From the NCBI RefSeq assembly GCF_003334385.1, contig NZ_QOWN01000016.1: a stretch of DNA of 64,000 nucleotides, one strand, 5' to 3'. The notes beneath the pieces were generated by a model, which saw only the letters and a program-made list of their open reading frames with translations, did not search any database and was not told the DNA's origin. Position numbers and translations under genes: made by a program. The stretch's first letter is position 1. Every line of letters begins with the position of its first letter. Shown here piece by piece: positions 3,279-9,267 of this stretch. Source of the stretch: Escherichia coli (GTDB taxonomy: Bacteria > Pseudomonadota > Gammaproteobacteria > Enterobacterales > Enterobacteriaceae).

Positions 3279-5246
3279 ATGGGTATTTTCTCCATTGCTA
3301 ACCAACATATTCGCTTTGCGGTAAAACTGGCGACCGCCATTGTACTGGCGCTGTTTGTTGGCTTTCACTTCCAGCTGGAAACGCCACGCTGGGCGGTACT
3401 GACAGCGGCGATTGTTGCCGCCGGTCCGGCCTTTGCTGCGGGAGGTGAACCGTATTCTGGCGCTATTCGCTATCGTGGCTTTTTGCGCATCATCGGCACA
3501 TTTATTGGCTGTATTGCCGGACTGGTGATCATCATTGCGATGATCCGCGCACCATTATTGATGATTCTGGTGTGCTGTATCTGGGCCGGTTTTTGTACCT
3601 GGATATCCTCGCTGGTACGAATAGAAAACTCGTATGCGTGGGGGCTGGCCGGTTATACCGCGCTGATCATTGTGATCACCATTCAGCCGGAACCATTGCT
3701 TACGCCGCAGTTTGCCGTCGAACGTTGTAGCGAGATCGTTATCGGTATTGTGTGTGCGATTATGGCGGATTTGCTCTTTTCTCCGCGATCGATCAAACAA
3801 GAAGTGGATCGAGAGCTGGAAAGTTTGCTGGTCGCGCAATATCAATTAATGCAACTCTGTATCAAGCATGGCGATGGTGAAGTTGTCGATAAAGCCTGGG
3901 GCGACCTGGTGCGACGCACCACGGCGCTACAAGGCATGCGCAGCAACCTGAATATGGAATCTTCCCGCTGGGCGCGGGCCAATCGACGTTTAAAAGCGAT
4001 CAATACGCTATCGCTGACGCTGATTACCCAATCCTGCGAAACTTATCTTATTCAGAATACGCGCCCGGAATTGATCACTGATACTTTCCGCGAATTTTTT
4101 GACACGCCGGTAGAAACCGCGCAGGACGTCCACAAGCAGCTCAAACGCCTGCGGAGAGTTATCGCCTGGACCGGGGAACGGGAAACGCCTGTCACCATTT
4201 ATAGCTGGGTCGCGGCGGCAACGCGTTATCAGCTTCTCAAGCGCGGCGTTATCAGTAACACAAAAATCAACGCCACCGAAGAAGAGATCCTGCAAGGCGA
4301 ACCGGAAGTAAAAGTAGAGTCAGCCGAACGTCATCATGCAATGGTTAACTTCTGGCGAACCACACTTTCCTGCATTCTGGGCACGCTTTTCTGGCTGTGG
4401 ACGGGCTGGACTTCCGGCAGTGGTGCAATGGTGATGATTGCGGTAGTGACGTCACTGGCAATGCGTTTGCCGAATCCACGCATGGTGGCGATCGACTTTA
4501 TCTACGGGACGCTGGCCGCGCTGCCGTTAGGGCTGCTCTACTTTTTGGTGATTATCCCTAATACCCAACAGAGCATGTTGCTGCTGTGCATTAGCCTGGC
4601 AGTGCTGGGATTCTTCCTCGGTATAGAAGTACAGAAACGGCGACTGGGCTCGATGGGGGCACTGGCCAGCACCATAAATATTATCGTGCTGGATAACCCG
4701 ATGACTTTCCATTTCAGTCAGTTTCTCGACAGCGCATTAGGGCAAATCGTCGGCTGTGTGCTCGCGTTCACCGTTATTTTGCTGGTGCGGGATAAATCGC
4801 GCGACAGGACCGGACGTGTACTGCTTAATCAGTTTGTTTCTGCCGCTGTTTCCGCGATGACTACCAATGTGGCACGTCGTAAAGAGAACCACCTCCCGGC
4901 ACTTTATCAGCAGCTGTTTTTGCTGATGAATAAGTTCCCAGGGGATTTGCCGAAATTTCGCCTGGCGCTGACGATGATTATCGCGCACCAGCGCCTGCGT
5001 GATGCACCGATCCCGGTTAACGAGGATTTATCGGCGTTTCACCGACAAATGCGCCGCACAGCAGACCATGTGATATCTGCCCGTAGCGATGATAAACGTC
5101 GTCGGTACTTTGGCCAGTTGCTGGAAGAACTGGAAATCTACCAGGAAAAGCTACGCATCTGGCAAGCGCCACCGCAGGTGACGGAACCGGTAAATCGGCT
5201 GGCGGGGATGCTCCATAAGTATCAACATGCGTTGACCGATAGTTAA
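3279..5246 (+). CDS. aaeB: p-Hydroxybenzoate efflux pump subunit AaeB
   Basis: 655 aa multi-pass membrane protein 5 bp downstream of aaeA; recognised as AaeB. Confidence 0.9.
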
Positions 5247-5250
5247 GTCA

Positions 5251-5278
5251 AAACCGACGCCAAAAGCGTCGGTTTTTT
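5251..5278 (+). terminator. Intrinsic terminator after aaeB
   Basis: Hairpin ACCGACGC-caaaa-GCGTCGGT followed by a T-run, immediately after the aaeB stop. Confidence 0.75.
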
Positions 5279-5337
5279 CATGGCTATACTTAGCGATGCA
5301 CGGCAGAACTCGCCGCGAAACGTGACGGTGGCAACAG

Positions 5338-5610
5338 ATGAATATTTATACCTTTGATTTTGATGAGATTGAGAGTCAGGAGGATTTTTATCGTGACTTT
5401 AGCCAAACCTTTGGTCTGGCGAAAGATAAGGTACGCGATCTCGACTCACTATGGGATGTGTTAATGAACGATGTCCTGCCGCTACCACTTGAGATTGAAT
5501 TTGTTCATCTGGGAGAGAAAACGCGTCGCCGTTTTGGCGCGTTAATATTGCTGTTTGATGAGGCAGAGGAAGAGCTGGAAGGGCATTTGCGTTTTAATGT
5601 TCGTCATTAG
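5338..5610 (+). CDS. yhcO: Barstar-like small protein YhcO
   Basis: 90 aa acidic ORF; recognised as YhcO; the barstar-like assignment is from memory of the family. Confidence 0.75.
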
Positions 5611-5613
5611 CGC

Positions 5614-5638
5614 AAAAAAAAGCCCCCGAACCGGGGGC
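5614..5638 (-). terminator. Intrinsic terminator for yhcN (minus strand)
   Basis: Hairpin GCCCCCG-aa-CCGGGGGC with an 8 nt A-run on the plus strand, which is a U-run after the stem on the minus strand. Confidence 0.65.
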
Positions 5639-5665
5639 AATATCGTCGGACAAGACGATGAGGGT

Positions 5666-5929
5666 TTATTTGTACAGTTCAGCCGTAGCGTGCCAGGTGT
5701 CACCGCTACGAGCTTCAGTAATCTGGTAGGCCGTTGCGCCTTTCTCTTCCGCTTTTTTGTTCAGCATTTCACGCATATCCATTGGCGAAGACGCCACACC
5801 ACTTACGGATACGGTCCCGATTGCTTCACGATTTTGTGCTTGTGCAGCATCAATGGAGTCGGCAGCGAATGCACCGAAAGAGAGAACAGAAAGTACGCTT
5901 AATGCAGCAACAGTGGTTTTGATTTTCAT
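5666..5929 (-). CDS. yhcN: Periplasmic stress-induced protein YhcN (YdgH/BhsA/McbA-like family)
   Basis: 87 aa from the internal Met (MKIKTTVAALSVLS...) with a signal peptide; the track ORF is N-terminally over-extended. Confidence 0.8.
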   Translation of the reverse strand: MKIKTTVAALSVLSVLSFGAFAADSIDAAQAQNREAIGTVSVSGVASSPMDMREMLNKKAEEKGATAYQITEARSGDTWHATAELYK

Positions 5930-6293
5930 GATTTTTACCTCGACATAATCTTTTAGCTGGGCCTTTGTTTCGTGACCCATATCACAAAATCAAGTATACA
6001 CTAATTATTGAGCTAATTAATACCGCGCTAACTGTTTCAGTTGATACTAAGTGTTAAAAATGTGAATTTTAATAACAAAAAAGAATTAAAAATACGGTTA
6101 TTTATCGTTAATTCTAGTTTTTTCAATTAGATAATGAATTTTGCATAATGTGCTTTTTTTACCTTATGTATTCATTGTGTGAATGACATGTCGCAGTAAA
6201 ACGCACTATTCGTTAAATTAATCGCAGGGGAAAGCAGGGGGTTGAGAGGGATAAGCAACATTTTCCCCGCCGTCAGAAACGACGGGGCAGAGA

Positions 6294-6767
<474 letters not shown>

Positions 6768-8199: not shown

Positions 8200-9267
8200 T
8201 TAATTGGTTGCCGGATATTCCTGAATGGTGACCTGCAGCGTTAACTGCTTATCATCACGCATCACTACTACAGGGATCACCGAACCAGGGCGAATTTCCG
8301 CCACCTGATCCATCGTCTCCAGAGCAGAGATGGCCGGTTTGTTATCCACCGAAATAATCAGATCGTTGACCTGAATACCCGCATTCGCCGCCGGGCCGTC
8401 AGGTGACACTTCATTAACCACGATCCCTTGCAGTTGATCTATACCACCGCCCTGCGCGTGCAGTGGTGCGATCTCACGTCCGCCGATACCAATGTAGCCG
8501 CGGATCACGCGACCATCGCGGATCAGCTTATCCATAATTTTGGTTGCTAACTGGAAAGGAATCGCAAAGCCGATACCTTCCGGCGTTTCGCCATCGTTAC
8601 TCTTATCAAACGACAGCGTATTAATGCCCATCAGTTCGCCCAGCGAGTTCACCAGCGCGCCGCCAGAGTTACCGTGGTTAATGGAAGCATCGGTTTGGAG
8701 GAAGTTTTGCCGCCCGGTCGGGTTCAGACCGATTCGACCCGTGGCACTAATAATCCCCTGGGTAATGGTCTGCCCGAGGTTGTACGGGTTACCGATCGCC
8801 AGTACTACGTCGCCAATGTGCGGTACGCGACGTGCATTAATTGGAATGGTAGGTAAACCGCCAGTGGCATTAATTTTAAGTACCGCCAGATCGGTTAGAG
8901 AGTCAGATCCCACCAGCAATGCTTCAAATACACGTCCATCCTGTAAGGCGACGATGATCTGATCGGCGTCGTTGATGACGTGTTTATTGGTGATGATATA
9001 ACCGTGTTGATCCATGATTACACCGGATCCCAGGGTGCGGATCTCAAGCTGGTTGTGAGAGTTGGTGTTCAAACCACGGTTGTAAACGTTAACCACCGCT
9101 GGCGCGGCGCGGCGAACCGCCAGATTATAGCTGGCAGGCGTCTCATCGGTACTGTCAAATTGCGGAGTGGAAAGCGGGTTAAGGCTGCGCAGCGAAGGCA
9201 TGGCAACCAGCAGAATAGCGCCGACAATTAATCCAATCGCAACGGAACGTAAGAGCTTCACAAACAT
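8200..9267 (-). CDS. degS: Inner-membrane serine endoprotease DegS
   Basis: 355 aa with an N-terminal transmembrane anchor, trypsin-like domain and one PDZ domain; recognised as DegS. Confidence 0.95.
   Translation of the reverse strand: MFVKLLRSVAIGLIVGAILLVAMPSLRSLNPLSTPQFDSTDETPASYNLAVRRAAPAVVNVYNRGLNTNSHNQLEIRTLGSGVIMDQHGYIITNKHVINDADQIIVALQDGRVFEALLVGSDSLTDLAVLKINATGGLPTIPINARRVPHIGDVVLAIGNPYNLGQTITQGIISATGRIGLNPTGRQNFLQTDASINHGNSGGALVNSLGELMGINTLSFDKSNDGETPEGIGFAIPFQLATKIMDKLIRDGRVIRGYIGIGGREIAPLHAQGGGIDQLQGIVVNEVSPDGPAANAGIQVNDLIISVDNKPAISALETMDQVAEIRPGSVIPVVVMRDDKQLTLQVTIQEYPATN

Follow-up and report, generated by a model that had tools for sequence, protein, structure and literature searches.

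Escherichia coli carries yhcO, a gene of the barstar ribonuclease (RNase) inhibitor family, at a locus where no RNase gene lies beside it, which raises the question of where such an inhibitor came from and why it has been kept. The gene was examined in a stretch of 64,000 nucleotides of E. coli DNA (referred to here as the window), in which an ATG-to-TAG open reading frame (ORF) on the plus strand corresponds to E. coli yhcO. The predicted protein is acidic, with 21 aspartate and glutamate residues against 10 lysine and arginine residues and a pI of 4.48. It was 100% identical over residues 1 to 90 to the crystallized protein in PDB entry 2CX6 ("Hypothetical protein yhcO") and was closely related to Salmonella 5F4C (E = 2.6e-45). 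The 1.3-kb region around the gene was found in all 5,426 complete E. coli genomes searched, in which the RefSeq label is "yhcO: barstar family protein" and the position is between aaeB and yhcN; the gene order in MG1655 is yhdP-tldD-aaeR-aaeXAB-yhcO-yhcN-argR-mdh. yhcO is a real, expressed, and conserved gene and not a chance ORF; it is a known gene whose family assignment and structures can be found in databases. The initial annotation of the window had described a small acidic protein flanked by aaeB and a convergent yhcN, and its length, pI, and coordinates agree with that description (Table 1).

Several features of the neighborhood differed among relatives. Leaving aside Escherichia (one such gene in E. 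coli) and Citrobacter amalonaticus ku-bf3, most Enterobacteriaceae have two tandem yhcN-like (DUF1471) genes after yhcO. Kosakonia cowanii contains an insert of ~4.3 kb between yhcO and the yhcN genes, and its yhcO ORF is apparently still full length, with an N-terminal extension. The GC content of yhcO (42.9%; GC3, 41.8%) was below the values for aaeB (52.6%) and the window (50.9%), despite vertical inheritance.

Table 1. Features at the yhcO locus in the window and at mapped loci of other genomes (L numbers denote loci)
Feature	Position	Strand	Description
aaeB, end of gene	5246	+	Upstream neighbor of yhcO
aaeB intrinsic terminator	5250..5278	+	11-bp hairpin at 5250-5276, U-run to 5278; RNA fold -16.9 kcal/mol, z -6.2 versus shuffles
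Sigma-S-type -10 element, GCTATACTT	5283..5291	+	Candidate promoter; CTATACT at 5284-5290, 47 nt before yhcO ATG; found by eye and pattern search
Shine-Dalgarno-like GGTGG	5327..5331	+	6 nt before yhcO ATG; sequence reading
yhcO CDS	5338..5610	+	Barstar-family protein, 90 aa, pI 4.5; predicted RNase-plugging residues D36, W39, D40, E75, E79
Two LldR-box-like sequences	5409-5425, 5474-5490		From gSELEX (PMC10272880); placed by exact match, both inside yhcO CDS
Intergenic hairpins, yhcO/yhcN	5622..5660		Terminator scan; fold -23.3 kcal/mol, z -3.9
GC-rich hairpin	5622-5638		Predicted yhcN terminator
Hairpin with T-rich tail	5641-5660		Likely yhcO terminator
yhcN	5666-5929	-	Convergent with yhcO; DUF1471 periplasmic peroxide/acid stress protein, not a nuclease; NCBIfam NF033776 (stress_YhcN), E = 1.4e-44, above cut-off, and RefSeq annotation
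-10 element, other loci	L009 ~6473; L011 ~6455; L020 ~7959; L031 ~5844; L027 ~7298
SSADH gene, other loci	L011 6428-7954; L031 5901-7418		Also at L009, L012-L018, L022, L023
RNase-barstar pair, Erwiniaceae	L085-L087 7001-7757		Also L068, L069; different locus
Tandem yhcN-like genes	L010-L028, about 8330-9000		DUF1471
Insert, Kosakonia cowanii	L026 8231-12590		Between yhcO and yhcN genes
rng (RNase G)	L001 873-2342		~10 kb upstream of yhcO in MG1655

YhcO had been called barstar-like in the initial annotation, with profile and structure comparisons proposed as the check and a predicted structure unrelated to barstar named as contrary evidence. Residues 1 to 81 of YhcO matched positions 1 to 85 of the 96 in the Pfam Barstar model (PF01337; E = 2.4e-9; 37.5 bits), and YhcO orthologues also carry precomputed PF01337 matches. 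BLASTP alignment of YhcO with barstar showed 27% identity, with helix 2 ungapped and its motif in register. A phmmer comparison restricted to barstar sequences from the PDB did not reach significance (E = 0.06 to 1), so that profile and fold comparisons were needed; no match to YhcO was found in NCBIfam, PADLOC, or PHROGs. The AlphaFold model of the single sequence was poor (pLDDT, 68.6), and the model used was therefore an AF2 model with a 49-sequence alignment, which had a pLDDT of 96.4 and the element order E-H-H-E-H-H-E. In Foldseek comparisons, this model matched 2CX6 (TM score, 0.99) and 5F4C (TM scores for the two, 0.98 to 0.99), solved structures that are both titled "ribonuclease inhibitor Barstar," and it also matched approximately 25 barstar chains, including 1BRS_D, 1B3S_D, and 1BTA (TM scores, 0.78 to 0.83; rmsd, 2.0 to 2.6 Å; E = 2e-5 to 5e-4). 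The barstar alpha/beta fold, a three-stranded parallel sheet packed on helices, was present in the model. YhcO thus has the barstar fold and belongs to the barstar family, as the earlier description had it: profile and structure both match barstar (TM score, ~0.8; rmsd, ~2 Å).

The likeness extends to the residues that plug the RNase active site. D36, W39, D40, E75, and E79 of YhcO align in register with D35, W38, D39, E76, and E80 of barstar, and the acidic plug motif (a helix-2 DxxxD with an intervening Trp, together with helix-4 glutamates) is present. Barstar of Bacillus amyloliquefaciens (PF01337; PDB 1BRS and 1BTA) is likewise a protein of ~90 residues with an alpha/beta fold, is similarly acidic (pI 4.7, compared with 4.5 for YhcO), and carries the helix-2 motif LDxLWD in register with YhcO. 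Apart from the low sequence identity, YhcO differs from barstar in having no adjacent barnase gene, and a search of the literature yielded no YhcO inhibition or binding experiment. By Pfam, the barstar domain is the only domain of YhcO, and a DNA-binding domain is lacking. An antitoxin of a type II toxin-antitoxin system was considered as a further role for YhcO and rejected on the lack of such a domain and of an adjacent toxin gene.

The initial annotation had also stated that the window holds no barnase-type partner, and this was borne out: when four enterobacterial barnase-type RNases and barnase were compared by tblastn with all 64 kb, no E value was better than 0.25. If a cognate barnase-type RNase were encoded elsewhere in the E. 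coli genome, yhcO would not be an orphan at all. The genome-wide search that had been proposed was run in part, covering 5,426 genomes at the DNA level, three chromosomes at the protein level, and the best 120 matches in a protein search, and all runs were negative in E. coli. In distant-mode blastn of the Serratia RNase and inhibitor DNA against the 5,426 genomes, only 72 bp of yhcO was matched. A tblastn search of a plasmid collection with the Serratia RNase found matches in Bacillus, in Clostridium, and in two Proteus chromosomes mislabeled as plasmids, yet none in the three E. coli chromosomes (4.8 to 4.9 Mb) and one Klebsiella pneumoniae chromosome (5.37 Mb) that are mislabeled in the same collection. 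The best 120 matches among 5.8 billion proteins came from Yersiniaceae, Budviciaceae, and some Erwiniaceae, and none of these 120 was named Escherichia, Salmonella, or Klebsiella. To our knowledge, no PF00545 protein is annotated in K-12. All four observations argue against a partner encoded in trans within the genomes and matches covered, and such a partner is very improbable. RNase G, encoded by rng, was also considered as a partner and was rejected, being of an unrelated RNase family and unlinked to yhcO.

Partners of the expected type were found in other Enterobacterales. YhcO relatives with 39 to 45% identity were each encoded directly downstream of an RNase gene of PF00545 (barnase/N1/T1), and the order on one such contig, yhdP-CN_hydrolase-tldD-RNase-barstar-darP-pmbA, represents the tldD neighborhood of E. 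coli. A scan of one genome per species, with mapping by tblastn, provided 80 loci. Two loci on tiny contigs were left out as likely contaminants (Corynebacterium, L019, 241 bp; Hydrogenophaga, L024, 422 bp), as was L074 (Citrobacter koseri NCTC10786), at which every gene was fragmented. The sequence from Corynebacterium lipophiloflavum was 100% identical to E. coli yhcO over residues 1 to 58, and that from Hydrogenophaga intermedia was 71% identical and accompanied by an aaeB fragment; both are almost certainly enterobacterial contamination.

An RNase gene lay just upstream of the yhcO homologue in Serratia, Yersinia, Ewingella, Rouxiella, Chimaeribacter californicus, Edwardsiella, Xenorhabdus, Providencia, Arsenophonus, and Regiella. 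RNase-partnered positional orthologues, in a tldD/aaeB neighborhood as in E. coli, were thus present in Yersiniaceae, Hafniaceae, and Morganellaceae, with the order aaeR-aaeXAB-(SSADH)-RNase-barstar in Yersiniaceae. The gap from the RNase stop codon to the barstar start was 1 to 5 nt in 48 of 51 loci, a spacing indicative of an operon. The inhibitors of these operons (for example, YPO3690 of Yersinia pestis) were 50 to 57% identical to YhcO, and the C-terminal half, from RRFGA(L/I)(I/V) onward, was nearly identical. The RNases have a hydrophobic, signal-like N terminus, and the Serratia RNase shared 57% identity with barnase across 100 residues without gaps, with K27, R59, E73, R83, R87, and H102 all kept, so that they are, judged from their sequences, genuine barnase orthologues. 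Neither the Yersinia RNase nor the accompanying inhibitor has a model in NCBIfam. The optional gene between aaeB and the RNase gene or yhcO encodes an aldehyde dehydrogenase of the SSADH subfamily; it was found in Yersinia, Enterobacter, Citrobacter, Lelliottia, Kosakonia, and Erwinia mallotivora and was missing at the locus in E. coli, Klebsiella, and Salmonella.

Two observations on this gene set stand apart. The spacer of Salmonella arizonae matched the 3' end of the SSADH gene weakly over 16 nt (E = 0.013), which is a hint only. In Erwiniaceae (Erwinia sp. Eh17-17, [Pantoea] beijingensis, E. typographi, and Winslowiella), a barnase-type RNase and barstar pair occurred at a different locus, adjoining srfB/Virul_Fac virulence-associated genes at L085 to L087.

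The initial annotation had held that a cognate toxin gene lying right beside the inhibitor gene in relatives would speak against an orphan immunity gene. Such genes are indeed adjacent in other Enterobacterales families, and they leave the orphan status of the E. coli gene standing while explaining its origin. At all 23 loci of the Enterobacteriaceae type, the order was aaeB-(SSADH)-yhcO-yhcN-argR-mdh, with no RNase gene; these orphan-type loci came from Escherichia, Salmonella, Citrobacter, Enterobacter, Lelliottia, Klebsiella, Kosakonia, and Pseudenterobacter, together with Erwinia mallotivora. The SSADH stop codon lies 46 bp from the yhcO start in Enterobacter, a spacing that points to clean excision of the RNase gene, and neither the window nor 22 orphan-type loci searched by permissive tblastn contained a recognizable remnant of an RNase gene. 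Orphan-type sequences were monophyletic in 60 of 60 neighbor-joining (NJ) bootstraps, which argues for a single RNase loss in the Enterobacteriaceae lineage. It is this deletion that would account for the orphan inhibitor described in the initial annotation.

RNase genes were also missing or broken outside this clade. In Chimaeribacter arupi, the RNase gene was cleanly deleted, with the SSADH gene followed directly by that of the inhibitor, and the inhibitor protein was identical to that of the sister species, which keeps the RNase. In Hafnia psychrotolerans, a remnant of the RNase gene with an internal deletion was still recognizable by tblastn (E = 2e-5). These two losses are independent and recent, so that the RNase was lost at least three times, with the inhibitor kept each time. 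Such a pattern is expected where losing only the inhibitor would kill the cell.

An orphaned inhibitor might be no more than a functionless relic on its way to becoming a pseudogene, and the loss of its RNase partner, its low GC content relative to its surroundings, and its rate of change could all be read in this way: dN of yhcO in the orphan clade was 0.194, approximately twice that of AaeB (0.103). However, the median pairwise dN/dS (NG86) was 0.119 among orphans and 0.118 among partnered homologues, rough values because dS was near saturation for most pairs, and yhcO dN/dS remained between 0.06 and 0.2 in every dS bin. The corresponding AaeB values were 0.068 in genomes of the orphan group and 0.097 in those of the partnered group. 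The full-length yhcO ORF was intact in all 23 orphan-type species loci, representing at least 8 genera, and the locus was present in every complete E. coli genome, as described above; published data also show that yhcO is transcribed and regulated. Orphan yhcO is kept by purifying selection and is not decaying, and a decaying relic is highly unlikely. Taken as a whole, the account in which yhcO is the leftover inhibitor of a secreted-RNase/inhibitor pair, orphaned by loss of the RNase and maintained under selection, is probably correct.

The upstream region of yhcO also bears on this origin. An intrinsic terminator separates aaeB from yhcO, and its hairpin is kept in Citrobacter, Enterobacter, and Klebsiella. 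Beyond it lies a sigma-S-type -10 element (Table 1); a generic sigma-70 scan flagged no promoter upstream of yhcO. The sequence GGCTATACTT also follows aaeB in Klebsiella, where it precedes yhcO, in Citrobacter and Enterobacter, where it precedes SSADH-yhcO, and in Yersinia, where it precedes SSADH-RNase-barstar; a near-identical element, GACTATACTG, follows aaeB in Serratia. Conservation of the element whatever gene follows suggests an ancestral stationary-phase promoter for an SSADH-RNase-barstar operon, and E. coli appears to have kept the putative promoter element of this operon together with its last gene.

Published expression data describe yhcO as dependent on RpoS (PMC2907692), induced by acid (PMC2270276), and induced by a cathelicidin peptide (PMC6737244). 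Activation by LldR has also been reported, in a study stating, as papers up to 2023 still do, that the function of yhcO remains unknown (PMC10272880). Because the LldR boxes assigned to the "yhcO promoter" in that study lie inside the coding sequence, any effect of LldR on yhcO would be intragenic or indirect. Two hairpins occupy the interval between yhcO and yhcN. The GC-rich one is assigned to yhcN as a putative terminator because the A-run on one side of it is a T-run on the minus strand, and the other, with its T-rich tail, is likely the terminator of yhcO. Comparison of window positions 4800 to 6400 with Rfam gave nothing above the gathering score.

The origin of yhcO could alternatively lie in a polymorphic toxin system (CDI, Rhs, or T6SS), with yhcO a classical orphan immunity gene acquired horizontally in a variable island. 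Immunity proteins of the Imm-Barstar type do occur in such systems, and the low GC content of yhcO would fit acquisition. They are specific for barnase-like toxins, with DxxxD given as the signature motif (Zhang et al. 2012; PMC3482391), and Rhs effectors encoded at the Salmonella SPI-6 locus have a C-terminal domain labeled "Ribonuclease/Microbial RNase" and are accompanied by Barstar-type immunity proteins (PMC10469887). Family and motif are thus common to YhcO and these proteins, which neutralize barnase-type domains delivered into Enterobacteriaceae cells (PMC10469887). However, Imm-Barstar genes directly follow their toxin genes in variable islands and vary among strains, whereas yhcO is a core, single-copy, toxin-less gene at a fixed position in 5,426 of 5,426 genomes, and the synteny of the RNase-barstar operon is conserved across Enterobacterales families. 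The ancestral partner was a small stand-alone RNase with a signal-like N terminus rather than the C-terminal tip of a large toxin. Nor was yhcO found on phages or genuine plasmids or matched in PADLOC or PHROGs: the phage collection contained no RNase, and its sole YhcO match was a 691-kb Salmonella chromosomal scaffold, while YhcO matches in the plasmid collection were mislabeled chromosomes (four, of 4.8 to 5.4 Mb) or other large records with the chromosomal gene. Orphan cdiI and rhsI genes resemble yhcO in being immunity-type genes kept without a functional cognate toxin, but they form arrays beside toxin loci, are often strain specific, and arise by recombination, whereas yhcO was orphaned when a deep ancestor lost a stand-alone RNase gene by deletion, and it has been a core gene since then. 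A polymorphic-toxin origin has only a slight chance of being correct.

What the retained inhibitor now binds is a separate question, on which the contact residues of barstar are informative. None of the 23 orphans deviated at D36, W39, D40, E75, or E79, residues that also hardly varied among 55 partnered homologues, and YhcO positions 63 to 87 were almost invariant in orphans. The remaining barstar contacts (Y29, Y30, G31, N33, T42, G43, and W44) were absent from E. coli YhcO, which has D30, K31, V32, D34, M43, D45, and V46 and one inserted residue; barstar Y29, Y30, G31, T42, G43, and W44 correspond to D, K, V, M, D, and V. At the counterparts of barstar positions 30, 31, 33, 42, and 43, the partnered homologues of enterobacteria retain F, G, N, T, and G. 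Relative to the partnered consensus loop, FGANLDALWDVVTG, the orphan clade carried F31K (21 of 23 sequences), G32V (23 of 23), A37S (23 of 23), D or N at N34, and one inserted residue after helix 2, and the equivalents of barstar T42 and G43 were variable. The young orphans, Chimaeribacter arupi and Hafnia psychrotolerans, still have the partner-type loop, which argues that the remodeling came after RNase loss and that the loop was then frozen. The clade-fixed changes beside helix 2 (F31K, G32V, A37S, the insertion, and the relaxed T42/G43 equivalents) suggest a shift in specificity, and the changed or relaxed positions in the contact loop may have reduced affinity for barnase-type RNases.

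Such changes would fit the repurposed inhibitor raised in the initial annotation, namely, a former inhibitor neofunctionalized and retargeted to another endogenous protein (for example, a basic RNA-binding or nuclease-like protein of stationary phase), with inhibition of the barnase family gone. Remodeling at and beside the contact loop followed by strong conservation, the dN/dS of 0.12 with nearly invariant positions 63 to 87, and the timing of the remodeling after RNase loss all favor this reading. Hartley is reported to have found in 1988 that barnase could not be cloned in E. coli without co-expressed barstar, from which it would follow that chromosomal yhcO at its native expression gives no protection against B. 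amyloliquefaciens barnase; this failure to rescue barnase cloning points the same way. On the other hand, the residues that contribute most of the binding energy (barstar D35, D39, W38, E76, and E80) are all kept and invariant, as a continuing RNase plug predicts, and no candidate partner is known and no new neighbor is conserved, yhcN encoding a periplasmic stress protein. Retargeting away from barnase-type RNases is possible but doubtful.

The most plausible targets of present-day YhcO are foreign barnase-type RNases, such as Rhs/T6SS effectors with a barnase-type C-terminal domain, a proposal to which we give somewhat less than an even chance. In its favor, barstar cross-inhibits several microbial RNases; against it, polymorphic-toxin immunity proteins usually have a narrow specificity, cloning of barnase in E. 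coli reportedly requires barstar, and the contact loop has changed. A broader reading would see in YhcO a co-opted immunity protein that outlived its toxin: its loop would have been rebuilt and then frozen, and it would serve a conserved stationary-phase function in Enterobacteriaceae under sigma-S control, either through a new endogenous basic protein or as a core-genome "public" antidote against injected barnase-type effectors. This reading is offered tentatively.

From the comparisons above, we infer a history in which the ancestral operon, downstream of tldD/aaeB, would have comprised a sigma-S-type promoter, an optional SSADH gene, a gene for a secreted barnase-type guanyl RNase, and a gene for a cytoplasmic barstar-type inhibitor. 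The RNase gene would have been deleted once in the lineage leading to Escherichia, Salmonella, Citrobacter, Enterobacter, Klebsiella, and Kosakonia, and the RNase must have gone first, since a cell deprived of the inhibitor before the RNase would not survive. E. coli would then have lost the dehydrogenase gene too, leaving the promoter element and the inhibitor. Since that time, purifying selection has maintained yhcO as a core gene, inherited vertically and belonging, according to published data, to the RpoS regulon. Its product may still work in the manner of barstar, with helix 2 (D36, W39, and D40) and E75/E79 entering the basic cleft at the active site of a cytoplasmic RNase, and it would act mainly in stationary phase or under stress.

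The orphaning history, the three independent RNase losses, the equal selection on orphan and partnered genes, the clade-fixed loop changes, and the inherited sigma-S promoter element appear to be new, as no account of them was found in the literature. The result is an evolutionary annotation and not a new type of system. Despite two crystal structures, yhcO is an uncharacterized E. coli gene, and the label "predicted barnase inhibitor, function unknown" can be replaced by a concrete and testable history. Should YhcO protect against barnase-type Rhs/T6SS effectors, every member of the species would have a chromosomal immunity gene in yhcO, with consequences for competition in the gut; should YhcO bind a new partner, it would provide a clear example of immunity-protein co-option.
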